A DNA stretch of 64,000 nt from Burkholderiales bacterium (GTDB lineage Bacteria > Pseudomonadota > Gammaproteobacteria > Burkholderiales > SG8-41), in NCBI GenBank assembly GCA_038316355.1, contig JBBQAO010000009.1:9336-73335 (forward strand), in the 5' to 3' direction. A program made the translations under genes and the position numbers. The notes under the pieces were generated by a model. That model worked only from the letters and a program-made list of their open reading frames with translations. It was not told where the DNA came from and did no database searches. Position 1 is the stretch's first letter. The number at the start of each line of letters is the position of its first letter. This document shows, one piece after another, positions 98 through 64,000 of this stretch.

Positions 98-1591
98 TCA
101 GCGTTTATCCGCCCGGGAGATCAGGAACTGGGTCAGCAGCGGCACCGGTCGACCGGTGGAGCCTTTTTCCTTGCCGGATTTCCAGGCGGTGCCGGCCACG
201 TCGAGATGGGCCCAGGGATATTTTTTGGTGAAACGGGAGAGGAAACACGCGGCGGTCACCGCGCCGGCGGGACGGCCGCCGATGTTGGCGAAATCCGCGA
301 AGTTGCTGTGCAGCTGATCCTGGTATTCGTCGTGCAGCGGCAGGTGCCAGGCGCCGTCGCCGGCGATCTCGCCCGCGGCCAGCACTTCGTGCGCCAGCGG
401 GTCGTTGTTGGCGAACAGGCCGCTTACCACATGACCGAGCGCGATGACGCAGGCGCCGGTGAGCGTGGCGATGTCGATGACTGCGGCGGGCTGGTAACGC
501 TCGGCGTAGGTCAGCGCGTCGCACAGGATCAGGCGGCCCTCGGCGTCGGTGTTGAGGATTTCCACGGTCTGGCCCGACATGCTGGTGACGATGTCGCCGG
601 GTTTGGTGGCGCGTCCGCCGGGCATGTTTTCGGTAGCGGGTATGATGCCGACCATGTTGACCGGAAGTTTCATTTCGGCAATGGCTTTGATGGTGCCCAG
701 CACGCTGCCGGCACCGCTCATGTCGTACTTCATTTCATCCATTTCCGGCGCCGGCTTGATCGAAATGCCGCCGGTGTCGAAAGTGACGCCCTTGCCGACC
801 AGCACCACCGGTTTCTGCCGCTTCGGTCCGCCGCTGTATTCAATAACGATCAGTTTCGGCGGTTCGCTGCTGCCCTGCGCCACCGACAGCAGCGTGTTCA
901 TGCCAAGTTTTTTCATGTCGGCACGTTCGAGCACCTGGATTTTCAGGCGGTAGTGTTTGGCGAGTTTGCGCGCTTCGTCGGCCAGATAAGCGGGCGTGCA
1001 GACATTGCCCGGCAGGTTGCCGAGATCACGGGCGAGGTTCACGCCATGGGCGAGTGCGAGTCCGCGCGCGAGTCCGCTTGCGGCGCGTTTGACGTCAGCC
1101 TGGGTTTTCACCGAGAGCACGGCCTTGCTCAATGCCGACGCGGTTTTTTCCGGCTTGCTTTTCATCTGTCCGAAACGGTAGTTCGTGGTGCGTGCGGCAC
1201 AGGCAGCCTGCATCGCCTTCCACTCGATGTCGCGGTGGCCGACACTGAGCTCGGTGAGGTGCAGTTCGGCATCGGTTGTACCGGTGCTGGCGAGGGCGCC
1301 GATGGCCGCGGTGACGCTGCGGCGGAATTGTTTTTCTCCGAATTCGGCCTCTGCGCCCAGTCCGACCAGCAGCACGCGCGCACTGCCAATGCCGGACACG
1401 TCGTGCAGCAACAAGGTGCTGCCGATGCGGCCTTCCATGTCGCCGCGCTGCAGCACGCGGCGCAGGTAACCTTTGGTGGCGTGATCGATTGCCGTGGCGG
1501 CGTCGCTCAGTGTCCTGCCGGCGTATACGCCGACCACGGTGCAGCCGCTGGCGTTGCGGCCCGGAACGAGGGGTTTTATGCTAAATTCCAC
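98..1591 (-). CDS. pepA: leucyl aminopeptidase (M17 family)
   Basis: 497 aa ORF with the M17 signature [17 protein letters not shown] and a [11 protein letters not shown] motif. Confidence 0.95.
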
Positions 1592-1814
1592 GCGTCAACT
1601 CCTATGCGCATTAGGTTCTTTTCAGGAACATGTCTGGCGATCCGTGTCGTACCGCATTGTGTGCGGAACCGGCCATCGTGAGCATCGTTGAAACCCGGCG
1701 ACAAGTGCGGCAAAAACATGTGCAAGACGTGCAACACACCGTGCAGCAACACACCGGCATCCAGCATCATCCATTGATTATCTGCGCGTTCATTTCAAAA
1801 AGCAAAATGCCGGC

Positions 1815-2894
1815 ATGATTTTCCGCTCTGCATTGCTGCGTGAACTTGCGACCTCGGCGGTCGCGATATTCCTGGTCCTGCTCGGCATTTCCATTACCAC
1901 CCAGCTGGTGCGTCTTCTGGGTCAGGCAGCCAGCGGGCTGATAACCTCCACGGGTGTCGTTGCCCTGCTCGGGTTCACACTGGTCGGCTACCTGCCGATC
2001 CTGCTCTCGGTGACACTGTTCATTGCGGTGTTGATGACGCTGACCCGCAGTTACCGGGATTCGGAAATGGTGGTGTGGTTTTCCTGCGGCCTCGGTCTGA
2101 CCCGCTGGATCCGGCCGGTGCTGACTTTTTCCCTGCCGCTGGTGCTGACGATTGCGCTGCTGTCGCTGTTGCTCTCGCCATGGGCGGTGCAGAAGGCCGA
2201 GGATTTTCGCCGCCAGATGGACAGCCGCGATGAAGTGGCGCAGGTGACGCCGGGCGTGTTCCATGAATCGCGCCGGGCCGACCGGGTGTACCTGGTTGAG
2301 GAGGTTGCCGGCAAGGCCAACCTGGTGGCCAATGTGTTTGTCAGCTCGACCCAGAACGGCAAGCTCGGCGTGATGGTCGCGCAGAGCGGTTTCCAGGAAA
2401 CCGCAGCCAACGGCGACCGTTTCCTGGTGTTGCTTAACGGCCGTCGTTACGAGGGTGAGCCAGGCTCCCCTGAATACAAGATTTTCGAGTTCGGGCGTTA
2501 CGCGATGCGCATCGAGACTGCGGAGTCCGTGGCTCGGGCACCCACGACCAAGACCATGTCGACATTGGACCTGATGCGCGATCCGGATCCGCGCAATCTC
2601 GGCGAATTGTCCTGGCGCGTGGGCCTCCCCGCGAGCGCGCTGATTCTGTGCCTGCTGGCCATTCCGCTGTCGTTCGTGAATCCCCGCGCCGGCCGCTCGA
2701 TGAACATCGTGCTGGCGATACTGGTGTACATGGTCTACAGCAATCTGCTGTCGATCATGCAGGCGTCTATCGCGCAGTCCCGGATTGATTTTTTCATCGG
2801 CATGTGGGGCGTGCATGCGGCCATGGTGCTGCTGCTGCTGGGAATGTTCTATCGGCGGCTTTCGGTGTTCTCGTTGTGGCGGCTGCTGCGGTGA
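1815..2894 (+). CDS. lptF: LPS export ABC transporter permease LptF
   Basis: 359 aa YjgP/YjgQ-type membrane protein (MIFRSALLRELA...). It is divergent from pepA and followed by lptG, as in many proteobacteria. Confidence 0.9.
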   Translation: MIFRSALLRELATSAVAIFLVLLGISITTQLVRLLGQAASGLITSTGVVALLGFTLVGYLPILLSVTLFIAVLMTLTRSYRDSEMVVWFSCGLGLTRWIRPVLTFSLPLVLTIALLSLLLSPWAVQKAEDFRRQMDSRDEVAQVTPGVFHESRRADRVYLVEEVAGKANLVANVFVSSTQNGKLGVMVAQSGFQETAANGDRFLVLLNGRRYEGEPGSPEYKIFEFGRYAMRIETAESVARAPTTKTMSTLDLMRDPDPRNLGELSWRVGLPASALILCLLAIPLSFVNPRAGRSMNIVLAILVYMVYSNLLSIMQASIAQSRIDFFIGMWGVHAAMVLLLLGMFYRRLSVFSLWRLLR

Positions 2895-3964
2895 GGACGC
2901 TGCGCAACTATGTGGCACGGGAAGTCGCGATGGCGACTTTTCTGGTGTTCGTCGCGTTGCTGCTGCTGTTCGCGTTTTTTGATCTGGTGGAGCAAATGAA
3001 GGATCTCGGGCGTGGCGGCTACCAGTTGCGCCACATCCTGCTACACGTGCTGCTGTCTGCCCCGAATCATGTCTATGAGCTGTTTCCGATTGCCGCGTTG
3101 ATCGGCACGCTGTTTGCGCTGGCGCAACTGGTGGCGAGCTCGGAATACACGGTGATGCGCGCCTCCGGCGTGTCGCTGGTGCGCATAGTGGGCGCGCTTG
3201 CGACTGTGGGCGTGGCGTTCGGCGCGCTGACTTTTGTTGTCGGCGAGTTTGTCGCGCCGCCCGCCGAACAGTACGCGCAGAGGCTGCGCTCGCAGGCGAT
3301 TTCCGGCATCGTGGCGCAGGAGTTTCGCTCCGGTTTGTGGATCAAGGACGGCACCGCTTTTGTGAATGTGCTCGAGGTCACACCTTCCGGTGGACTTAAG
3401 GGGCTGCGGATTTACGAATTCGATGCAAACTACCGCCTGCGCAATCTCCGCTTTGCCGCAGGCGCGGAGTACAAGGGCGACAACCGCTGGCAACTGATGG
3501 ATGTTGCGCAAACGACCTTTGAGGGTTTGAAAACGCGGGTGAGCAATATTGAGCGCATGGACTGGCAGTCGGTGCTCGAACCGGCGTTGCTCACGGTGCT
3601 GCTGGTCAAGCCGGAGAAAATGTCGGCGTGGAGCCTGTATTCCTACGCACAGCATCTGAAGGAGAACCGGCAGAAGGCGCTGCGCTATGAAATCGCCCTG
3701 TGGATCAAGCTCCTGTACCCGGTGGCGGTGCTGGTGATGATGGTGCTGGCGCTGCCGTTCGCCTACTTCCAGAGCCGTCAGGGGGGGGTCGGTGCAAAGT
3801 TGTTCGCCGGCATCATGCTGGGGCTGGCATTTCATTTCCTCAATCGCCTGTTCGGGCATCTGGGGCTGCTCTATGACTGGCCGCCGTTCTCCAGCGCCGT
3901 GGTGCCGACGATGCTGTTCCTCAGCATTGCGCTGGGCATGATGTGGTGGCAGGAACGGCGCTGA
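2891..3964 (+). CDS. lptG: LPS export ABC transporter permease LptG
   Basis: YjgP/YjgQ family. I place the start at GTG 2891 (VRTLRNYVAREV...), which overlaps the lptF stop as GTGA. The ORF-track start at 2804 would overlap lptF by 90 nt. Confidence 0.88.
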   Translation: MRTLRNYVAREVAMATFLVFVALLLLFAFFDLVEQMKDLGRGGYQLRHILLHVLLSAPNHVYELFPIAALIGTLFALAQLVASSEYTVMRASGVSLVRIVGALATVGVAFGALTFVVGEFVAPPAEQYAQRLRSQAISGIVAQEFRSGLWIKDGTAFVNVLEVTPSGGLKGLRIYEFDANYRLRNLRFAAGAEYKGDNRWQLMDVAQTTFEGLKTRVSNIERMDWQSVLEPALLTVLLVKPEKMSAWSLYSYAQHLKENRQKALRYEIALWIKLLYPVAVLVMMVLALPFAYFQSRQGGVGAKLFAGIMLGLAFHFLNRLFGHLGLLYDWPPFSSAVVPTMLFLSIALGMMWWQERR

Positions 3965-3973
3965 GCCTGCTAC

Positions 3974-4393
3974 TCATCCGCTGACGACCAACCGGGTTCC
4001 GGCCAGCCGGTCGTGCAGAAACTGCCCGTCGCGGTCGATCAAAGCCCAGATGATTGACAGGCCCAGCAGCAGATAACCGGCGGTTGCGAGAGCGGCGCGC
4101 AATAACGCCCGCGGCACTTCGACGGGGGTGCCATTGACGGTTTCAAGGCGCATGCGCCAGGTTTTCATCGGCAGCGTCTGCCCGCTGCGCTGCCACTGCC
4201 AGACAAAATAAGCAGCACATGCTGCGCTGCCGATCACCTGAGTGAACAGCCGCGCGTACCCGGGATTGGTGATTTGCGCCAAGGCTGCTGCAGCGCCGCC
4301 GGCGGTCAGCACGACCACGGTGAGAAGCAAAATCTCGTAGACGAGGCTGAGCAGGCGTCTGCCGATGCCTGGCGTTCTGGAGCTTGCCGTCAC
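3974..4393 (-). CDS. RDD family membrane protein
   Basis: 139 aa with several TM segments and the C-terminal RDGQFLHDRLAGTRLV motif typical of RDD domains. Confidence 0.75.
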   Translation of the reverse strand: MTASSRTPGIGRRLLSLVYEILLLTVVVLTAGGAAAALAQITNPGYARLFTQVIGSAACAAYFVWQWQRSGQTLPMKTWRMRLETVNGTPVEVPRALLRAALATAGYLLLGLSIIWALIDRDGQFLHDRLAGTRLVVSG

Positions 4394-4869
4394 TGCCGTT
4401 GGGTTGAGGGTGCTGGAGCAGAACCGGTGCCCGGTGTGATGAGTTCGCCAACCGGTGGATCAAACGGAGTTTCGGACTGGGCCAGGGAACTTTTGTAGTC
4501 GCGGTATTGCTTGGCCATGTTGCGGCGCTGTTCCGGAGTCAGTTTTTTCAGTTCCTTGTAGCGGTCCCGCGCGGCCTGGCGCTGGGCAGGAGTCAGCGCG
4601 GCCCAGTCTTTCATCCGTTTCTGCAGCCGCTGCTGGTCGGCAGGCTTCATTTTCGGATAACGGTCGGCGATGGCGACCCATTTTTTGCGCCGCGTGGAAT
4701 CCATTTCGGGCCACTCTGCGGCAAGGGGGGCGAGCACCTGTTGCTGCGCGGGCGCGAGTTCCGACCAAGTCGGTTTTACGGGTTTAGCGCCCTGTTTTGC
4801 AGGCTGTGCGGCGACGGCAGGAAGCGCAAGGCATAGCCAGAGGATCAGCGCGATTGCCGGTTTAGCCAT
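4390..4869 (-). CDS. DUF3106 domain-containing secreted protein
   Basis: Signal peptide followed by repeated W..L.P.QR helices (WSELAPAQQQ, WAALTPAQRQ, LTPEQRR). Its start overlaps the stop of the upstream gene. Confidence 0.7.
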   Translation of the reverse strand: MAKPAIALILWLCLALPAVAAQPAKQGAKPVKPTWSELAPAQQQVLAPLAAEWPEMDSTRRKKWVAIADRYPKMKPADQQRLQKRMKDWAALTPAQRQAARDRYKELKKLTPEQRRNMAKQYRDYKSSLAQSETPFDPPVGELITPGTGSAPAPSTQRQ

Positions 4870-5231
4870 GAATCGAAGCCCTTGTCGAGGTAGGCATCGA
4901 TCGGCAGGTCGTCGGTCAGCAACCGAACGTCAAGATCGGCCAATTCATTATTTTGCCAGCTGCCGGATTGCCAGTAACCGATGCTGATCAGCCCCATGAC
5001 CAGCAGGGCGATGGGCAGCGCGTAGTGCAGGCCCGTGGCCGGACGGTCGCTGTTTCGCGATGACCATGATCCTGCCCAGGCGAGTTTCCAGCCCGGCGCT
5101 GTGCGAAATCCGGCCAGCGCGTGTTTACGTGCTGCCGCCAGTTTTGCCACGGTGTCGCCACCCATGTCGCGGGTACTGCGGTCGAGCACCCGGGCGATTT
5201 TTTTCGCGGTCTCGTGTTCATGGGCATTCAT
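4845..5231 (-). CDS. DUF3619 family protein
   Basis: 128 aa with one TM segment. It sits in the conserved position between an ECF sigma gene and DUF3106 and is translationally coupled to the sigma gene. Confidence 0.6.
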   Translation of the reverse strand: MNAHEHETAKKIARVLDRSTRDMGGDTVAKLAAARKHALAGFRTAPGWKLAWAGSWSSRNSDRPATGLHYALPIALLVMGLISIGYWQSGSWQNNELADLDVRLLTDDLPIDAYLDKGFDSWLNRQSR

Positions 5232-5794
5232 AGCTCAATTCCCTGTTTTCTGAGCAATATCGCCAATGCATGCGTGGCCCGGGAGCAATGCGTTTTAACG
5301 CTACCCTCCGAGCATCCCATGGCTTTAGCGGTTTCGGCGACATCCAGTTCCTCCCAGTAACGCAACATGAATGCCTGACGTTGACGCAGCGGCAGAGTTG
5401 CCACGGCTTTCTCAATAAAATCAAGAACTTGTTTTTGTTCGAACTGTTCGGCAGGGCGGTTGGCGACTTTCGAGGTGTTGTCGACTTCCAAGGTTTCCAG
5501 CGGATCATAGTCTTCGTCGGCGTCGCTGCCAAACAGCGTGCTGAGCGGGGTGAGCCAGGCGGAGCGTACTTTCTGGCGGCGGAAGAAGTCGCGGATGGCG
5601 TTCTGCAGGATGCGCTGGAATAGCATCGGGAACTCGGTGACCGGGCGGTCCGAGTATTTCCCCGAGAGTTTAAACATGGCGTCCTGCACGATATCCAGCG
5701 CAAGATGTTCATCCCGCACGGAAAATACCGCCTGCTTGAACGCCCTGCGCTCGACTCCGGCCAGGAAATCCGCGAGTTCCTTGTATGTGGCCAG
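5228..5794 (-). CDS. ECF-type RNA polymerase sigma factor (start uncertain, possibly CTG at 5794)
   Basis: Sigma-70 region 2 (ALDIVQDAMFKL, FPMLFQRILQNAIRDFFRR) and region 4 (LRQRQAFMLRYWEELDVAETAKAMGCSEGSVKTHCSRA). The track ORF starts at GTG 5719, but conserved-looking in-frame sequence continues upstream (LATYKELADFLAGVERRAFKQAVFS). Confidence 0.85.
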   Translation of the reverse strand: MATYKELADFLAGVERRAFKQAVFSVRDEHLALDIVQDAMFKLSGKYSDRPVTEFPMLFQRILQNAIRDFFRRQKVRSAWLTPLSTLFGSDADEDYDPLETLEVDNTSKVANRPAEQFEQKQVLDFIEKAVATLPLRQRQAFMLRYWEELDVAETAKAMGCSEGSVKTHCSRATHALAILLRKQGIEL

Positions 5795-6043
5795 CTGGGT
5801 GCCTTTTTTTATGTGCCGGCGCCGATGGTGGCGCGACGGGGGCTCGGAAATCCTTGGGTTCGCGGCATCTTAGCAAAACAGCGGGTTGAGGCAAGGGCTG
5901 TTTAGTGTGCTCTGCAAACGCTTGTATCCTGCTGTTTACAGAGATATTTTGCTTGACCGACGGAGCTTCGCGCGGTAACGTTTCCGGTTTCCTCCTCGCC
6001 TTAAACTCGCGTTGAGCGTTCCAACACGAGCGGGTCCAAAATC

Positions 6044-57569: not shown

Positions 57570-58982
57570 ATGGCTAAATTCCGCACCGAACACGACACGA
57601 TGGGCGCCATCGAAGTGCCCGACAACATGCTGTGGGGCGCGCAGACCCAGCGCAGTCTGCATCACTTCCATTTCCCCGGCGAGACCATGCCGCTGCCGGT
57701 GGTGCATGCGCAGGTGATGGTGAAAAAAGCCGCGGCGCTGACCAACATGGCGCTGGGCGCGCTCGACAAAAAGAAAGGCAAGGCCATCGTCAAGGCTGCT
57801 GACGAAGCGCTGACCGGACAATGGGATGCACATTTCCCGCTGGTGGTGTGGCAGACCGGCTCCGGCACCCAGACCAACATGAACGTCAATGAAGTGCTGG
57901 CGAATCGCGCGTCGGAAATCCTTGGCGGCAAACGCGGCGCAGCGCGCCTGGTGCATGAGAACGACGACGTCAACAAGGGGCAGTCTTCGAACGACACCTT
58001 CCCCACGGCGATGCATGTTGCAGCAGTGATCGCGCTGGAAAAACAGTTGAAGCCCGCGGTAAAAAAACTGCGCAACACGCTGGACAAAAAATCCCGCGCC
58101 TTCATGAACATCGTCAAGATCGGTCGCACCCATCTGCAGGATGCGACGCCACTGACGCTGGGCCAGGAATTTTCGGGTTATGTGTCGCAGCTCGACCACA
58201 GCCTGAAACACGTCGAGGCGTCACTGCCGCATCTGTGTGAGCTCGCGCTCGGCGGCACTGCCGTCGGCACCGGCCTCAACGCCCATCCGAAATTCGCCAA
58301 GGATGTCGCGGCGCAGCTGAAGAAGATGACGGGTCTTCCTTTCATCACCGCACCCAATAAATTCGAAGCACTGGGCTCCTGCGACGGCGTGGTTGCCGCT
58401 CACGGCGCAATAAAAACGCTGGCGGCATCGCTGATGAAAATCGCCAACGACATTCGCTGGCTGTCCAGCGGCCCGCGCTGCGGCATCGGCGAACTGAGCA
58501 TCCCGGAAAACGAACCGGGCTCGTCGATCATGCCGGGCAAGGTCAATCCAACGCAGTCGGAATCGATGACCATGGCCTGCTGCCAGGTCTTCGGCAACGA
58601 CGTCGCGATCAATGTCGGTGGTTCAATGGGCAACTTCGAGCTCAACGTGTTCCGGCCGATGGTGATCCGCAATTTCATGCACAGCGTGAATCTGCTGGCG
58701 CATGCCTGCGAGAACTTCGACGAACACTGCGCGGTCGGCATAGAGCCCAATCTCGAACGCATCACCCAGCTCACCAATGATTCTCTGATGCTGGTGACCG
58801 CGCTCAACCCGCACATCGGTTATGCCAAGGCCGCGGCGATTGCCAAAAATGCCCACAAGAAGGGCTTGACGCTGAAGGCCTCGGCGATTGCGCTGGGGCA
58901 TCTGACTTCAGCGCAGTTCGATCAGTGGGTCAAGCCGGAGAGCATGGTCGGCATCAAGATCAAGGCGCCGAAAAAGAAATAG
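57570..58982 (+). CDS. fumC: class II fumarate hydratase
   Basis: 470 aa with [17 protein letters not shown] and the signature [13 protein letters not shown]. Confidence 0.97.
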
Positions 58983-59007: not shown

Positions 59008-59042
59008 ACGCCTGCCGGCGGGAGTCGGTGGGCGTTTTTTTT
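59008..59042 (+). terminator. rho-independent terminator after fumC
   Basis: ACGCC..CCG-gcgggagt-CGG..GGCGT composite stem followed by TTTTTTTT. Confidence 0.75.
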
Positions 59043-59077
59043 GGGGATTGACGTCTTGTGGAGTGACGCTCATTTGG

Positions 59078-59114
59078 TCCCGTAATACGCTGCGCTCCTT
59101 ACGGGCTACGCTTG
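59078..59114 (+). repeat. REP element copy 1
   Basis: TCCCGTAATACGCTGCGCTCCTTACGGGCTACGCTTG, containing an internal hairpin CCCGTAA...TTACGGG. Confidence 0.85.
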
Positions 59115-59804
59115 CTGCGCTTTACGTCCGATAATGTTGAATATTTGCTCGGCTGCTGTAGTGCGTTCTCGCTGGACGGAGGATGTGGCAACTTGCGCTC
59201 GGTTCCAGACAATTAGATTTGGAAATGATTTGCCTCCAAGTTCAATAATCCTTGCGGCCCTTTTCCCCATTGCGATGATTACGCGCGGTTGAATCTCTTC
59301 AATTAGCGGATAGACGTAGTTCTTTGCAGCTTTTTTCCCAGCGGTGTCATCAAAATTTGATTCGCTGGCCGTTCGCCAAGGTAGCGCGTTTGAGTATGCA
59401 ATATCTTCAAACGAAAGCTTGCCTGCACCAATGACTTCAGAGCAATGGCGTCGCCAAATCGGCCACGATTGACACACCGACTTATATGCTTTTTGCGCTT
59501 GGATGAACGACGTTATTGAAACATCAGCAGCAAAGCGATGTAGGGCAGGCATCATAGTGTTGTCTTGTCGACTGCGCACGAGATCATTTCCGTTTCCTGG
59601 ATTAATTCCGAGGAGCAATACCCTGCTTTGGTCGAACTGAGTGCCTACATAACCAAACTGTGGAATGAGGTCGTCGCTTGCTACGAGGGCTGATCGATTA
59701 TGTGGTAAATCGGAAGTTACAGAACCGAGAAATTCGGCTCTGCCGAAAGCAATCGCGTCCTTTGCTGATTTGTAACCAAGCGGTAGGTCATATTTGGATG
59801 TCAT
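59106..59804 (-). CDS. orphan protein with UDG-superfamily-like motif pattern (function unproven)
   Basis: 232 aa from ATG 59804. LLLGINPGNG resembles the MUG/TDG GINPG motif. IAYSNALPWRT and PRVIIAMGKRAA parallel the N-x-V-K-C-R-P and P-K-V-I-V-x-L-G-x-x-A blocks of family 4 UDGs. The ORF is AT-richer than its neighbours, and its stop codon lies inside REP1. Confidence 0.5.
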   Translation of the reverse strand: MTSKYDLPLGYKSAKDAIAFGRAEFLGSVTSDLPHNRSALVASDDLIPQFGYVGTQFDQSRVLLLGINPGNGNDLVRSRQDNTMMPALHRFAADVSITSFIQAQKAYKSVCQSWPIWRRHCSEVIGAGKLSFEDIAYSNALPWRTASESNFDDTAGKKAAKNYVYPLIEEIQPRVIIAMGKRAARIIELGGKSFPNLIVWNRAQVATSSVQRERTTAAEQIFNIIGRKAQQA

Positions 59805-59806
59805 GC

Positions 59807-59843
59807 CAAGCGTAGCCCGTAAGGAGCGAAGCGTATTACGGGA
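59807..59843 (-). repeat. REP element copy 2 (inverted)
   Basis: The reverse complement is TCCCGTAATACGCTTCGCTCCTTACGGGCTACGCTTG, which is 36/37 identical to REP1. Confidence 0.85.
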
Positions 59844-59854
59844 TAACATACGCT

Positions 59855-60385
59855 ATGGTTTCCTATCGCCGCAACCATGTCGCTGGAGGCACGTATTTCT
59901 TCATCGTGAACCTGCACGACCGCCGGCAAACGCTGCTGGTGGATTACGCCGAGGCCTTGCGCGAGATTGTTCGTGGGGTGAGGCGCGAAATTCCGTTCAA
60001 GATTGATGCGATGGTGATCCTGCCCGACCACTGGCATGCGGTGTGGACCTTGCCGGAGGTCGACGCTGCTTATGCGCGGCGCATACGCTTGATCAAATCG
60101 CGATTGACGCGAGATCTGTTGAAGGCCGGGGTCCCGCTCACAAAAGACAGGCGCGGCGATTACGATTCATGGCAAAAACGCTACTGGGAGCATACGATTC
60201 GCGATGAACGCGATTTCGAGGCGCACGTGAATTACGTGCACATCAATCCGGTCAAACACGGTTACGTGAAGCGCGCGGTGGATTGGCCTTATTCGACATT
60301 GCACCGGTATATCAAGAACGGTATCTTGCCGGCGGATTGGGCGTTTGGAGATCAAGGTGGAATGTTTGGTGAGAGGGCCCCCTGA
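59855..60385 (+). CDS. REP-associated tyrosine transposase (RAYT, IS200/IS605-like Y1 HUH family)
   Basis: 176 aa with an HUH motif in LPDHWHAVW and a catalytic Tyr region HVNYVHINPVKHGYV. It is flanked by REP2 and REP3 in opposite orientations. Confidence 0.85.
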   Translation: MVSYRRNHVAGGTYFFIVNLHDRRQTLLVDYAEALREIVRGVRREIPFKIDAMVILPDHWHAVWTLPEVDAAYARRIRLIKSRLTRDLLKAGVPLTKDRRGDYDSWQKRYWEHTIRDERDFEAHVNYVHINPVKHGYVKRAVDWPYSTLHRYIKNGILPADWAFGDQGGMFGERAP

Positions 60386-60422
60386 TCGCGTAATTCGCTG
60401 CGCTCCCTGCGGGCTACGGGTG
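60386..60422 (+). repeat. REP element copy 3 (diverged)
   Basis: TCGCGTAATTCGCTGCGCTCCCTGCGGGCTACGGGTG. It has the same orientation as REP1 and about 30/37 identical positions. Confidence 0.7.
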
Positions 60423-60515
60423 AAGTTTTGTTGCACATGGCGCTCGCGTTAAATATATAATAAAATCAATTACTTATATAGTTTATGCCAGCTTTCCGAT
60501 TCTGGCTGATCGCTG

Positions 60516-61040
60516 ATGCCCAAATTGAATCCCGACAGTCCGCTATGCGCCCTGATGGAAACCTTCCCCCGCGCGGGCAAGCTCGAATGGATCGGTCTGC
60601 GCCCGGCGCGGCGCGCACCGCTGCAATCCTTCAACCATGTCGAAGTGCTGACGGATCACGGCCTCGTCGGCGATCACAAGGCGCAACGCGCCGGCGGCAA
60701 GCGCCAGGTCACGCTGATCCAGCGCGAGCATCTTGATGTCGTGGCGAGGCTGCTCGGGCGCGATGCAGTTGATCCCGCGCTGCTGCGGCGCAATCTGGTG
60801 GTCTCCGGCATCAACCTGCTGGCGCTGCGTGATGCGCCATTTGAAATCGGCGGTGTGGTATTCGAAGGTACGGGTCTGTGCGAGCCGTGCTCACGCATGG
60901 AGGAGGTGCTGGGTGTCGGCGGTTACAACGCGATGCGCGGCCACGGAGGCATCACTGCGTGGGTTCTGGCGGGCGGGGTGATCGCGGTGGGGGATGCGGT
61001 GGTTTTTCAACCCCAGACCGATTACGGGCAAGTTCAATAG
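60516..61040 (+). CDS. MOSC domain-containing protein
   Basis: 174 aa with GLVGDHKA, RQVTLIQREHLD and CEPCSRMEE (the conserved MOSC Cys). Confidence 0.82.
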   Translation: MPKLNPDSPLCALMETFPRAGKLEWIGLRPARRAPLQSFNHVEVLTDHGLVGDHKAQRAGGKRQVTLIQREHLDVVARLLGRDAVDPALLRRNLVVSGINLLALRDAPFEIGGVVFEGTGLCEPCSRMEEVLGVGGYNAMRGHGGITAWVLAGGVIAVGDAVVFQPQTDYGQVQ

Positions 61041-61066
61041 ATTTGTAGTTACCCCTCACCCCAAGC

Positions 61067-61092
61067 CTCTCCCCGCCAGCAGGCGGGGAGAG
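61067..61092. terminator. GC-rich perfect hairpin between convergent genes (possible bidirectional terminator)
   Basis: CTCTCCCCGCC-agca-GGCGGGGAGAG, an 11-bp perfect stem. There is no clear U-tract on either side. Confidence 0.4.
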
Positions 61093-61206
61093 GGAGTTGG
61101 TCTGCGTTAAGTCGACCCGATTCAATCAGGCAGCGAAGCAGGTCATCCGAGCCGCAAGCCGCTTACGCTGTCGCCGTGAGTATTTACTGCGGCGTTCCTG
61201 AAAACC

Positions 61207-62214
61207 TCAATTCATGCCCCACAGCAGGCTGGAGCGGTCTTCGGGATTCCAGATGCGCTGGTCACGCCGTTCCTTCCTCCGGATTTCGTGCCAGCGGCGG
61301 TAGGCGACATTCTCCGGATTGGTCACCGTGTCGCTTTCGATGAATTGCGCCGCAAGCCGGTCCGGTAGTGGAAAACGTTTGCCGCTGCCCGGGTAGCCGA
61401 ACAGCGCCAGCGTATCGCCGATCAGGGCCTCCAGTGCTTCCACGTCCGGACGCGGAAGGCGCGTCTTGTACATCTCGCAATATTTGGTCGTGATCGACTC
61501 GGATGTTTTCGCGTGCAAGGGATGGCTGCTCCACTTTTCGGCGGACTTTGTCCGGTTGGGGGCGAGCATTGCGCGATCGAAATCCTCGCCCAGAAAACCG
61601 CACAGGCTCCGGATCGTCGCCTCCGGGTCCGCGCAGAGATCCTCGTAGCGGATTTCAATGAAAGAACTCCCGGGAAGCCGGCGCATCGAGTCGCGGATCG
61701 CCAGCACGTAGCGCTGCCACAGATTGGCGCCCGAGTACACCGAGTACGGCAGCAGTATTGAATCGGAAATGTCGATGGCCATGTCGCGGCCGTCGCGCAC
61801 GATGTGTATGAACCGGGCGTCGGGAAAGAGCGCGTGAATCTCGTCGATCCAGAAGGCGTTGCGGGGAGTCTTTTCGCCCCAGCGCCGTTTATGGCCTGGT
61901 TTCGCGTACGCCGTGTGCAGCGCGGCGTACAGCCCGGCGAAGGATTTTTCTTCGGCTGCGGCGACGAGCTCTGCGGCCGAGATGGTCAGGGGCCACTTCT
62001 GCACCGTAGGCGTCGCGAGGACGTCCTCGGCCAGCGCAAGAAAATTGGCATCGTTGTCGAGCGCTCCGTAACTGTAAAGGTACGGAAAGACAAGGTCGAA
62101 CAGCCAGCCCGGCGGCGGTATCGCGATGTCCGGATGCGCGTCGAGGATCAGCCGCAGCAACGTCGATCCGGAGCGGGGGGCGCTTACGACAAACAGGGGG
62201 GACGATTGATCCAT
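61207..62214 (-). CDS. sulfotransferase family protein
   Basis: 335 aa with a 5'-PSB-like motif SAPRSGSTLLRLIL and a later RDGRD region. It appears cytoplasmic. Confidence 0.78.
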   Translation of the reverse strand: MDQSSPLFVVSAPRSGSTLLRLILDAHPDIAIPPPGWLFDLVFPYLYSYGALDNDANFLALAEDVLATPTVQKWPLTISAAELVAAAEEKSFAGLYAALHTAYAKPGHKRRWGEKTPRNAFWIDEIHALFPDARFIHIVRDGRDMAIDISDSILLPYSVYSGANLWQRYVLAIRDSMRRLPGSSFIEIRYEDLCADPEATIRSLCGFLGEDFDRAMLAPNRTKSAEKWSSHPLHAKTSESITTKYCEMYKTRLPRPDVEALEALIGDTLALFGYPGSGKRFPLPDRLAAQFIESDTVTNPENVAYRRWHEIRRKERRDQRIWNPEDRSSLLWGMN

Positions 62215-62289
62215 AGGGCATGCCTCATGATGAAAGTTGGCTGAATCCGGTGCGGCATGGCGGCACGCCGTGGTCCCTGATCGAGCGTC

Positions 62290-62493
62290 TCAAGCTTCGA
62301 TGATCGCGACGATCTGTCCCTCGGTCACCGGATCACGCTCCCCGACAAGCAATTCGCCGAGCATGCCGCCGACCTCGGTGATGATCGGGATTTCCATTTT
62401 AATGGATTCGATCACGATCAGCGTGTCGCCGGGCTTTGCCTGCAGTTTCCAGACGATGCCGGTGATTTCGGACTTGATCTCAATGCGGGGCAT
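62290..62493 (-). CDS. stand-alone biotinyl/lipoyl-domain carrier protein (67 aa)
   Basis: MPRIEIKSEITGIVWKLQAKPGDTLIVIESIKMEIPIITEVGG... The attachment-type motif E-S-I-K-M replaces the usual E-A/S-M-K-M. The start is placed at ATG 62493. Confidence 0.7.
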   Translation of the reverse strand: MPRIEIKSEITGIVWKLQAKPGDTLIVIESIKMEIPIITEVGGMLGELLVGERDPVTEGQIVAIIEA

Positions 62494-62541
62494 GCGGCTG
62501 TCTTCCGTGTCGCTATTCCCTGGGAGCGGCACCGCGGCCCG

Positions 62542-63516
62542 TCAGTTCTCCTTCACACCAGCGTCACGGATGACCTTGCGCCATTTCTCGTAATCCTCCC
62601 GCAGGAACTTCTCGCTTTCTGCGGGGCTGCCGCCGATCGGTTCGGCTGCGTCCGCCGCGAGGCGCTTGCGCACGTCGGCCATGGTCAACGCCTGCTGCGC
62701 CGCGGCGTTCAGGCGGTTGACCGCCTCGGCCGGCATGCCGGCCGGCCCGAACATGCCCCACCACTGGTTCGACTCGAATCCGGGCAGGGTCTCGGCAATG
62801 CTCGGCAGGTCTGGCGCGATCGAGGCGCGTTTGGCGCTGGTCACTGCCAGCGCGCGCAGCCGCTTGCTCTGGACCTGCACCGATACCGTCGGGTAGGCCG
62901 AGAACAGCAGCGAAACATTGCCCGCCACTGTATCGATTACCGCCGGCGGGGCGCCGCGGTACGGCACGTGCACCATCTTGATGCCGGTGCGCTGGCTGAA
63001 GAGCTCGCCGGTGAGGTGGCTCAGCGTCCCGGCGCCGTTTGAGGCGTAGTTGAGCAGTCCGGGCCGCTGCCGCGCCAGCATGATGAGTTCCTGCACGTTT
63101 TTGGCTGGCACCGACGGGTGTATGACCAGCACGTTCGGCGCGGAGCTGATGATGATGATCGAGGAGAAGCTCCGCAGCGGATCGTACGGCGGCTTCTGCA
63201 TCAGGTTGGGCCCGATGACCAGCGCGCTGGAAGAAGTGACCAGCAGGTTGTAGCCGTCGGGCGCGGCTTTGGCGACGAGGTCGGAGCCGAGCGTGCCGCC
63301 GGCGCCGGTGCGGTTGTCGACGAGGAACTGCTGGCCCAGCGCGGCGCCCAATTTTTCGGCGACGGTGCGGGCCATCAGGTCGGTGCCGCCCGCGGCCGGG
63401 AACGGCACGATGATCCTCACCGGCTTCGCCGGGTAACCCTGGGCGGTGGCTGCGGCTGAACCGAAAAGAATGAATCCGGCGGCAAGCATTCTGAAACCGT
63501 TCGAGATTATTATCAT
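62542..63516 (-). CDS. Bug-family tripartite tricarboxylate transporter substrate-binding protein (TctC-like)
   Basis: Signal peptide, YPAKPVRIIVPFPAAGGTD and HVPYRGAPPAV. Confidence 0.9.
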   Translation of the reverse strand: MIIISNGFRMLAAGFILFGSAAATAQGYPAKPVRIIVPFPAAGGTDLMARTVAEKLGAALGQQFLVDNRTGAGGTLGSDLVAKAAPDGYNLLVTSSSALVIGPNLMQKPPYDPLRSFSSIIIISSAPNVLVIHPSVPAKNVQELIMLARQRPGLLNYASNGAGTLSHLTGELFSQRTGIKMVHVPYRGAPPAVIDTVAGNVSLLFSAYPTVSVQVQSKRLRALAVTSAKRASIAPDLPSIAETLPGFESNQWWGMFGPAGMPAEAVNRLNAAAQQALTMADVRKRLAADAAEPIGGSPAESEKFLREDYEKWRKVIRDAGVKEN

Positions 63517-63562
63517 TTTCTCCTCCGTTGAATTGTCTTGAAGACGTGGTGTTGGCAGACTG

Positions 63563-64000
63563 TCAGCGGCGTTGCGAAAGCTTCCTGATGAGTTTTTCGT
63601 CGACAGTGAGGCCCAGGCCCGGCGAGGTCGGCATGACGAAATAGCCGTCCTTGTCCTGCGTGACGCCGCCTTCCTTCACCGGCTGGTCCTTGATGCGCAG
63701 TTGATAGTCCATGCCGGGATCGCAGCCGACTATGCGCACTGCGGCGTGAAGGTGGCCGGTTGCGGTGTCGAGCAGGTGGCTGCCCTGGGTCCAGTCGATG
63801 CGCACGGGCAAGCCGACAGCTTCCGCGATGCGCATCATCTGCACCGACTTGTAGAAGCCACCGCATTTGCCGAGCTTGAGGCTGACCATGTCCGCGTAGC
63901 GTCCGGAGGCGATGCGGACCATCGTCGCAAGGTTCTGGATCGCTTCGTCGGCGACGATCTTGTGCGGCACGGCCTGCGTGATCGACGCGAGCCCGTTGAG
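63563..64000 (-). CDS. enolase-superfamily (mandelate racemase/muconate lactonizing enzyme-like) protein, C-terminal part, runs off the window
   Basis: ADMVSLKLGKCGGF, followed by a barrel-end pattern and GYFVMPTSPGLGLTVDEKLIRK, as in MR/MLE C-terminal domains. Confidence 0.7.
   Translation of the reverse strand, partial: LNGLASITQAVPHKIVADEAIQNLATMVRIASGRYADMVSLKLGKCGGFYKSVQMMRIAEAVGLPVRIDWTQGSHLLDTATGHLHAAVRIVGCDPGMDYQLRIKDQPVKEGGVTQDKDGYFVMPTSPGLGLTVDEKLIRKLSQRR

Follow-up and report, generated by a model that had tools for sequence, protein, structure and literature searches.

We analysed a 64,000-nt stretch of DNA from a Burkholderiales bacterium (GCA_038316355.1, contig JBBQAO010000009.1, positions 9,336 to 73,335; hereafter the window) in which a REP-associated tyrosine transposase (RAYT) gene, flanked by repetitive extragenic palindromic (REP) sequences, adjoins a complete gene that is itself enclosed between two inverted REPs. 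Our preferred explanation, to which we assign a probability of roughly 0.55, is that this locus of an uncultured Burkholderiales lineage is a REPtron whose REP-adjacent turnover slot has captured a gene that was formerly an integron cassette. Related lineages hold different genes at the same spot, which suggests turnover of genes next to the RAYT rather than an element that jumps with its cargo. The slot is defined as the DNA between the fumC terminator and REP2, and the relatives in which it was compared (L numbers) are all metagenome-assembled genomes (MAGs) or metagenomic contigs. The features of the locus, in window coordinates, are:

57570-58982, plus strand: fumC (class II fumarase; Pfam Lyase_1 at 1e-113, and FumaraseC_C), the conserved left flank of the slot
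59010-59045, plus strand: terminator-like hairpin and T-run of fumC, read from the sequence; left edge of the variable slot
59044-59853, no strand: tract common to the window and L001 (spacer, REP1, cargo, REP2 and a 10-nt gap), about 98% identical in nucleotides, with flanks at 77-89%
59046-59077, no strand: non-REP spacer of 32 nt, in cargo-bearing lineages only
59078-59117, minus strand: REP1 including its conserved tail (37-nt arm 59078-59114), with the GTAG head and the tail CAGCAAGCGTAG on the minus strand, facing the cargo
59106-59804, minus strand: cargo open reading frame (ORF), 232 aa, predicted distant protein of the uracil-DNA glycosylase (UDG) superfamily
59807-59843, plus strand: REP2, the RAYT-proximal upstream REP, with the GTAG head on the plus strand, facing the cargo, and its tail cut to CAAGC
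59855-60385, plus strand: RAYT (TnpA_REP), a Y1 HUH transposase of 176 aa
60386-60422, minus strand: REP3, the REP downstream of the RAYT, degenerate in the window lineage
60423-61040, plus strand: AT-rich promoter spacer (promoter-like site at 60432-60461) and MOSC-domain gene (60516-61040; Pfam MOSC at 1e-16), the conserved right flank

The RAYT and its REPs

Judged by its sequence, the RAYT is a genuine TnpA_REP-type Y1 transposase in which the HUH motif and the catalytic tyrosine are present. It scored 173 bits against the NCBIfam model NF047646 (REP_Tyr_transpos; cut-off 80) and also matched Pfam Y1_Tnp. Its match to TnpA_REP of E. coli (PDB 4ER8) was at 5e-44, with HWH and the tyrosine of YVHINP aligned to HMH and YIYINP. 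Consistent with the initial annotation, REP2 and REP3 flank the gene in inverted orientation, REP2 11 nt upstream and REP3 abutting the stop codon, and their GTAG heads point outward. The order malic enzyme-fumC-slot-RAYT-MOSC is kept in six further lineages with RAYT identities of 79-90%; the exception is L120, whose REPtron lies on the other side of MOSC. The fumC flank is syntenic in L007-L020, L094 and L116, and its terminator-like hairpin, which a simple terminator scan did not call, is kept in L018-L020 and L116. The locus combines a TnpA_REP-type protein, inverted GTAG REPs flanking its gene and syntenic orthologues, as a REPtron does. Genome-wide abundance of cognate REPs, which also characterises REPtrons, was not seen in the stretches counted (3 copies in 64 kb; 2-5 per relative). 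REPtrons in genomes without a REP family are known (PMC3733652, PMC2817692), and in some bacteria REPs are concentrated beside rayt (PMC2817692).

On its GTAG strand, the REP reads 5'-(C)AGCAAGC-GTAG-CCCGTAA-13 nt-TTACGGG, a palindrome with a GTAG head and a conserved 8-nt tail before the head. The REP1 hairpin consists of a CCCGTAA stem, a 13-nt loop and TTACGGG, and 7-bp folds were predicted for both REP1 and REP2. A repeat search recovered the two as arms of 37 nt each, 97% complementary and 692 nt apart. The initial description of a near-perfect inverted pair (36/37) around an intact ORF beside a genuine RAYT is borne out. Window REP3 has two broken stem pairs, lacks the CTTGCT tail and is predicted to form no stable hairpin, which leaves REP1 and REP2 as the only intact REPs of the locus. 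REP3 is intact in L094, L018 and L116; that of L001 (about 211-269) carries a 27-nt insertion in its loop. Across 34 REP copies of related loci, 98% of stem cells were paired and 3 of 7 pairs showed compensatory changes, which none of 500 shuffles equalled; these copies were picked by similarity to REP1, and the test carries some bias.

When the 32-nt REP core was searched at up to 3 mismatches, the REP1 and REP2 sites were the only ones found in the window, and 100 shuffles gave 0 matches. A Hamming scan of the window added REP3 alone (60387-60418, 4 mismatches), with no other copy up to 10 mismatches. All three copies lie at the RAYT locus, and relatives have 2-5 copies within +/-10 kb of their RAYT. 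The initial annotation had named as an objection a REP family so abundant that inverted pairs form by chance. In the stretches counted the family is not abundant, and chance pairing was rejected on three copies in the 64-kb window and none in shuffles. We also considered whether the 32-nt spacer is a relic of a RAYT 3' end, with REP1 as the REP3 of a lost tandem RAYT. This was rejected, as local alignment was no better than with shuffled sequence and the spacer had no match in the other, cargo-less lineages or elsewhere in the window.

Other RAYT loci differ in ways of their own. In L006/L017 (346-876; GCA_038246865.1), gene calling splits the RAYT into ORFs of 85 and 88 aa, and tblastn gave a match of 98.9% over residues 1-176. 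This combination indicates an in-frame stop, and hence a pseudogene or an assembly error. In Marinobacter (L039 versus L041, L042 and L051), the RAYT and an adjacent small gene are inverted relative to conserved flanking genes, as would be expected from inversion between the inverted REPs of a REPtron. A variable slot as a general trait of RAYT loci was rejected, since it is absent in Massilia and Marinobacter shows this inverted RAYT segment instead. At 9343-9387 of L018, a minus-orientation REP runs straight into CTACGCTTG, which is the tail of a REP in plus orientation. From its sequence, this hybrid looks like a recombination product of two inverted REPs at the stem.

The cargo gene and its exchange between lineages

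Both ends of the cargo lie within 0-2 nt of REP head-side tails, with the GTAG heads facing the gene. The gap between its ATG and REP2 is 2 nt, and not 3 nt as first annotated; an alternative ATG at 59849 would give a protein of 247 aa whose 15 extra residues are encoded by REP2. At the other end, REP1 does provide the TAG stop codon. The three sense codons also ascribed to it are reached only by counting the tail to 59117; its 37-nt arm contributes two, adding Q-A-TAG at the C-terminal end. As had been noted from a few lines of sequence, the ORF is AT-richer than its surroundings. Its GC content is 0.478 and its third-position GC content (GC3) 0.438, against 0.595 and 0.779 for fumC and 0.642 and 0.737 for MOSC; the GC3 of the RAYT is 0.68. 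A promoter scan found no sigma-70 promoter for the cargo, and the protein had no PADLOC match.

The cargo protein is assigned, on the strength of a predicted structure, to the UDG-superfamily fold as a distant member. The AlphaFold2 model had a predicted local distance difference test score (pLDDT) of 90.7. Its top Foldseek matches in the PDB were all UDG family 4, UdgX, SMUG1 or TDG, with template modelling (TM) scores of 0.43-0.55 and identities of 10-17%. Against PF03167 the protein scored 24.3 bits, exactly at the gathering cut-off, and a GINPGN motif (motif A, G-x-x-P-G type) is invariant among its homologues. It did not fall into a known UDG family, as the NCBIfam family-4 models scored far below their cut-offs, and it had no sequence match in the PDB. 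We found 169 homologues, most of them 225-230 aa long, which indicates that the window copy is full length. A truncated fragment left between REPs is ruled out, as the ORF spans 99% of 230-aa homologues. The roughly 170 detected members of this family share a conserved Cys and several conserved Trp residues and have no close solved structure, and they often adjoin toxin-antitoxin, Abi or restriction genes.

An integron cassette consists of an ORF and an attC site, an imperfect palindrome delimited by R'' (RYYYAAC) and R' (GTTRRRY), and begins with TTRRRY. The closest cargo homologues outside the window lineage (82, 78, 74 and 70% aa identity) lie on unrelated contigs with no REP or RAYT nearby, and they are framed by such elements. 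Upstream, TTGGGTTGCTCT-ATG, the start of a core site, precedes the homologue in three of four independent contexts, and the base before TT varies among contexts, as expected at the G|TT crossover point. Downstream, TGA-n4-GCAACCCAAC follows the stop in all four, containing the inverse core ACCCAAC, the exact complement of the upstream GTTGGGT. Two contexts have attC-like imperfect palindromes of about 70-80 nt ending in GTTAGAC, one of them within a clear attC array. These cassette features were found in the homologues of L002, L106/L107 and L110-L113. The clear array is that of L110 (Opitutaceae MAG JBDHQJ010000051), where attC-like sites (AGCCGAAC...GACGTTRGGC) follow each small ORF. These sites recur every 72-110 nt over 393-6000. 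Just upstream of some cassettes, including the UDG-like one, there is also a longer repeat between genes, up to about 250 nt in length and present three times (3024-3273, 3688-4024 and 5917-6000). A more distant homologue (56%) sits in a region of toxin-antitoxin and restriction genes with no attC.

At the DNA level, homology between the window and the 82% homologue runs from the ATG to the last sense codon, and the REP1 tail starts where the native TGA stood. The window copy itself no longer qualifies as a cassette, having REP tails at both ends, no attC and no core site. Insertion of a cassette by IntI at a secondary site in a REP tail was rejected by reasoning, since such events retain attC and the REP tail has no G|TT site. 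Taken with the boundaries of its homologues, these comparisons show that the cargo is a foreign gene and a former integron cassette. They yield an apparently uncharacterised UDG-fold family that travels as an integron cassette.

The order REP1-cargo-REP2-RAYT-REP3 is the same in L001. Identities between the window and L001 are:

32-nt spacer left of REP1: 32/32, with flanks at 77-92%
Cargo: 97.7% nt (third codon positions 97.0%)
REP2: 37/37
RAYT: 84.9% nt (third codon positions 72.7%)
REP3-MOSC spacer: 77% nt
MOSC 5' end: 89% nt

The shared tract contains 18 mismatches in 810 nt, and from 59854 on there are 9-13 mismatches per 50 nt. Its breakpoints lie at about 59043, in the terminator T-run, and at 59854, one base before the RAYT ATG. 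The RAYT of L094 is closer to that of the window (89% nt), yet L094 has no cargo. The contrast between cargo (97.7%) and RAYT (84.9%), together with this cargo-less closer relative, indicates that the module was exchanged between lineages long after the RAYTs diverged. On the evidence of these nucleotide alignments, the REP1-cargo-REP2 module is shown to have moved between lineages. Its limits are the conserved terminator and REP2 rather than REP1, as homologous recombination in short conserved flanks would predict. The sequence compared for L001 is one metagenomic contig of 1.7 kb.

Recombination among close strains is also indicated. L007-L013 have malic enzyme, fumC and RAYT proteins identical to those of the window and a cargo 99% identical, but their MOSC protein is just 86% identical. 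The genes downstream of MOSC differ entirely: those of L007-L013 encode a HisKA kinase, a response regulator and a Trypsin-PDZ protease, those of the window a sulfotransferase (61207-62214, minus strand), a biotin-lipoyl protein and TctC (compared stretch 60516-64000). L014 and L015 agree with the window over MOSC residues 1-94 and 1-75, which is all of MOSC that those contigs retain. The pattern between the window and L007-L013 points to a putative strain-level recombination breakpoint within or just past MOSC.

The variable slot and the origin of the REP junctions

REP2 is present in all eight lineages compared, and seven different contents occupy the slot. Outside the cargo-bearing lineages, these are:

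L094 (RAYT 90% aa): SDR gene starting 22 nt past fumC, and next to REP2 a second, 125-nt copy of the MOSC 5' end
L018 (RAYT 81% aa): two small low-GC ORFs with a REP between them, and a 33-aa remnant
L019 (RAYT 82% aa): DUF2441 gene and an 89-aa ORF, with same-orientation REPs between them
L019, beyond REP3: predicted 219-aa ORF entering the REP tail, with its stop inside the hairpin
L020 and L095-L104 (RAYT 81% aa): NTP_transf_8 gene with its own promoter
L116 (RAYT 79% aa): HTH gene
L120 (RAYT 75% aa): 194-aa ORF; REPtron on MOSC's other side

The point at which homology is lost is the same in all lineages, namely the outer end of the tail of REP2, on the GTAG-head side. The junction reads CTTG|gcATG in the window and CTTGCTGA|, CTTGCTCA|, CTTACTGC|, CTTGCTTC| and CTTGCTAC| in the others. 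No cargo homologue was found in the six lineages with other contents or in 76 other RAYT loci. The initial annotation had proposed a captured gene, and this part of it is upheld: the cargo is absent from the slot of every related lineage except its own and L001, its composition is foreign and its relatives are cassettes. We looked for relatives with the same ORF at this site and no REPs, which would suggest REP insertion around a resident gene, and found none. The slot genes gave no PADLOC matches to anti-phage defence systems, and plasmid matches to DUF2441 were only 27% identical.

Several relatives show local rearrangements in and around the slot. In L019 (8644-8700 and 9436-9492; 9511-9535; 9571-9612), a 50-nt direct repeat, made of a REP with the stem variant CCTGTAA/TTACAGG and its 3' flank, brackets the DUF2441 gene. 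A REP doublet adjoins the fumC terminator in the same lineage; deeper in the slot there are a degenerate REP and another piece resembling a terminator. The MOSC 5' copy in L094 (5826-5950) is about 90% identical to that lineage's own MOSC and abuts the REP2 tail. In L120 (1-120, about 780-930 and 2954-3037), the REPtron follows MOSC. Beyond it lies a piece of MOSC (residues 119-146), and REP2 is preceded by degenerate remains of the MOSC promoter and 5' part. The partial MOSC duplicates of L094 and L120 may be a trace of Campbell-type homology integration of circular REPtron-containing DNA.

In our preferred explanation, the RAYT would be a single-copy domesticated enzyme with its own low-copy GTAG REPs. 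The slot lies on the GTAG-head side of REP2 and holds a horizontally acquired UDG-superfamily gene from which attC and core site have been lost. At either end this gene is fused to the head-side tail of one of two inverted REPs, REP1 replacing the native stop and adding Q-A-stop. These fusions may stem from the known chemistry of RAYTs, in which cutting 5' of a REP head leaves the enzyme covalently attached through a 5'-phosphotyrosine, to which any available 3'-OH is then joined; REP1 would then be a locally generated REP copy. The module has passed between two lineages in a 0.81-kb tract, most simply via homologous recombination in the terminator and REP2/RAYT-start flanks. The substrates of TnpA_REP are single-stranded REPs, which it cleaves on either side of the hairpin (5' or 3'); the enzyme stays on the 5' phosphate, and an unrelated 3'-OH oligonucleotide resolves the link in vitro (PMC8266576, PMC3333891). 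The geometry found here, where both strands of the cargo run at their 3' ends into the 5' head of a REP, is the one that this strand-transfer chemistry predicts. We consider RAYT chemistry, with low to moderate confidence, the most likely origin of both REP-head junctions; the anatomy of the locus, the foreign and cassette-derived nature of the gene, the variability of the slot, the discordant divergence and the single location are shown by the sequence comparisons.

A number of points weigh against this explanation. We infer the link between the RAYT and the junctions from their geometry and not from direct evidence, and the junctions may instead stem from ordinary illegitimate recombination followed by trimming. 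The junction nucleotides (C|A, G|A, A|A and T|A) contain no consistent C|T or C|A cleavage motif, a dinucleotide that was looked for across the lineages. The preferred explanation does not account for the precise removal of attC and the core site. The variable slot may be no more than an intergenic hot spot of the ordinary kind, and the RAYT loci of Massilia are stable and have none. Two contents, those of L020 and L094, have a native-like composition; in L020, the gene comes with a promoter and an operator and lacks a far-side REP. The REP counts cover the 64-kb window and +/-10 kb around the relatives' RAYTs.

The initial annotation had suggested that REP1-ORF-REP2 might be mobilised in trans by the adjacent RAYT, as a non-autonomous element that is excised and reinserted, in effect a cargo-carrying member of the REP doublets forming hairpins (REPINs). 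This could explain why REP1 and REP2 are near-identical inverted copies (36/37) with intact hairpins, whereas REP3 has decayed, why both cargo junctions fall at REP tails, why the cargo has neither its own promoter nor spare flanking DNA, and why the module's common ancestor in two lineages is more recent than that of the adjacent RAYT. However, every instance of the module is at one site. The same or a near-identical locus occurs on more than 20 metagenomic or MAG contigs, always between fumC and the RAYT. A contig scan for a second copy in metagenomes gave this locus only, and no plasmid match to the module was found. There is no other REP or REPIN target in 64 kb, no further REP1/REP2 doublet in the window or in more than 120 other loci, and no cargo in any of 76 further RAYT loci. 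What the window shares with L001 exceeds the REP pair, reaching 32 nt past REP1 to the terminator. REPINs have spacers of tens of nt (PMC3116915, PMC3390384) and can form one long hairpin, whereas here 692 nt with an ORF separate 7-bp hairpins that fold locally, and the many doublet copies of a REPIN are absent from the window and the fetched loci. An inverse REP is neither bound nor cut by TnpA_REP (PMC8266576), which would leave just one active REP per strand in an inverted pair. Our literature search found no description of a gene-carrying REPIN. Mobilisation of the module as a REPIN-like unit finds no support in these data, and we consider it improbable.

The REPs may also be bystanders. 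A variable islet would have received a foreign gene by illegitimate or homology-facilitated recombination, and the tight fit would result from deletion and selection with no role for the RAYT. REP2 would simply be the RAYT's own REP, and REP1 would have landed at the 3' end of the gene. GTAG REPs do commonly sit just 3' of ORFs and give the TAG stop (PMC3733652), REPs accumulate near rayt genes (PMC2817692), and replacement by hicAB is known from the REPtron locus of E. coli (PMC3333891). The native-like slot genes of L020 and L094, the former without a far-side REP, and the stable loci of Massilia would likewise fit. Against this account, both ends of a stripped-cassette ORF lie within 0-2 nt of REP head tails, six further lineages have a like junction at REP2, as does L019 at REP3, and seven contents in eight lineages share one 1-kb slot. 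We regard it as possible but doubtful. At the other extreme, the REPtron could be an integron-like capture platform whose RAYT joins promoterless ORFs, including cassette-derived ones, to REP heads and so builds REP-separated arrays. L019, with three same-orientation REPs between two minus-strand ORFs upstream of the RAYT and one ORF fused to REP3, and L018, with a REP between two small foreign ORFs, are suggestive of such arrays. The window cargo is a former cassette, and slot genes are mostly divergent from the RAYT and foreign in composition. Yet the REPs are not arranged consistently, being inverted in the window and direct in L019. Some slot genes have no REPs or, as the L094 SDR, lie on the plus strand, and the pattern was seen in one clade only. 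We consider a capture platform very unlikely. Scarcely more probable is a broader proposal in which the GTAG-head sides of REPtrons would be HUH-driven capture sites. The RAYT would cut at the REP tail, attach foreign 3' ends there and so repackage single ORFs, in the window one from the integron cassette pool, between REPs into mobilisable or exchangeable units, as a Y1 cassette system parallel to integrons.

Comparison with known systems

REPtrons themselves are known; what is new here is a REPtron that encloses a captured former integron cassette gene between REPs, beside a slot that varies among lineages. We know of no natural RAYT product other than REPs and BIMEs (bacterial interspersed mosaic elements). 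Cleavage and strand transfer by RAYTs have been demonstrated in vitro. The locus offers a very simple natural substrate, in which a 0.7-kb marker gene separates two intact REPs beside one RAYT. If the junctions are RAYT products, domesticated HUH transposases would become agents of gene gain and turnover, and the cassette pool would be linked to REP systems. Otherwise, it would still illustrate cleanly a hot spot adjoining a REPtron.

The locus agrees with described REPtrons (Nunvar 2010, PMC2817692; Ton-Hoang 2012, PMC3333891) in its single RAYT with HUH motif and tyrosine, inverted GTAG REPs with heads outward, syntenic position in most relatives, RAYT evolving faster than its neighbours and REPs concentrated by the gene. 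Unlike those, it has an additional inverted REP, which together with the upstream REP encloses a foreign protein gene in its entirety, its adjoining DNA differs in almost every related lineage, and its REP family apparently has about 3 copies. With REPINs (Bertels & Rainey 2011, PMC3116915) it shares two near-identical inverted REPs. In contrast to REPINs, whose REPs are 60-70 bp apart centre to centre in Pseudomonas (PMC3390384), its GTAG heads point inward to a spacer of 692 nt that holds an ORF, and there is neither a population of copies nor a sign of the doublet duplicating as a unit.

Comparison with integron cassettes gives a similar mixture. Members of the cargo family are cassettes in other genomes, and the window copy is likewise a promoterless single ORF between single-strand hairpin sites, beside a recombinase gene that reads in the opposite direction. 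However, the window locus has no attC, core site or IntI, its hairpins are REPs, and its enzyme is a Y1 HUH transposase and not a tyrosine recombinase. IS200/IS605 elements and their non-autonomous derivatives also combine a Y1 HUH transposase with subterminal hairpins, a guide-like tetranucleotide 5' of them and no target duplication. Their end hairpins are on the same strand, whereas those of the window are inverted around a unit whose transposition was not seen, beside a RAYT that is single-copy and largely syntenic. Further precedents are GTAG REPs that overlap ORF ends (Di Nocera 2013, PMC3733652), as the GTAG of REP1 does in giving the stop codon, and rayt 3' ends built into BIMEs (Nunvar 2010), where host sequence is likewise enclosed between REPs near rayt. 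The window locus differs from both in that it involves the two ends of a whole foreign gene, whose native stop codon has been replaced.

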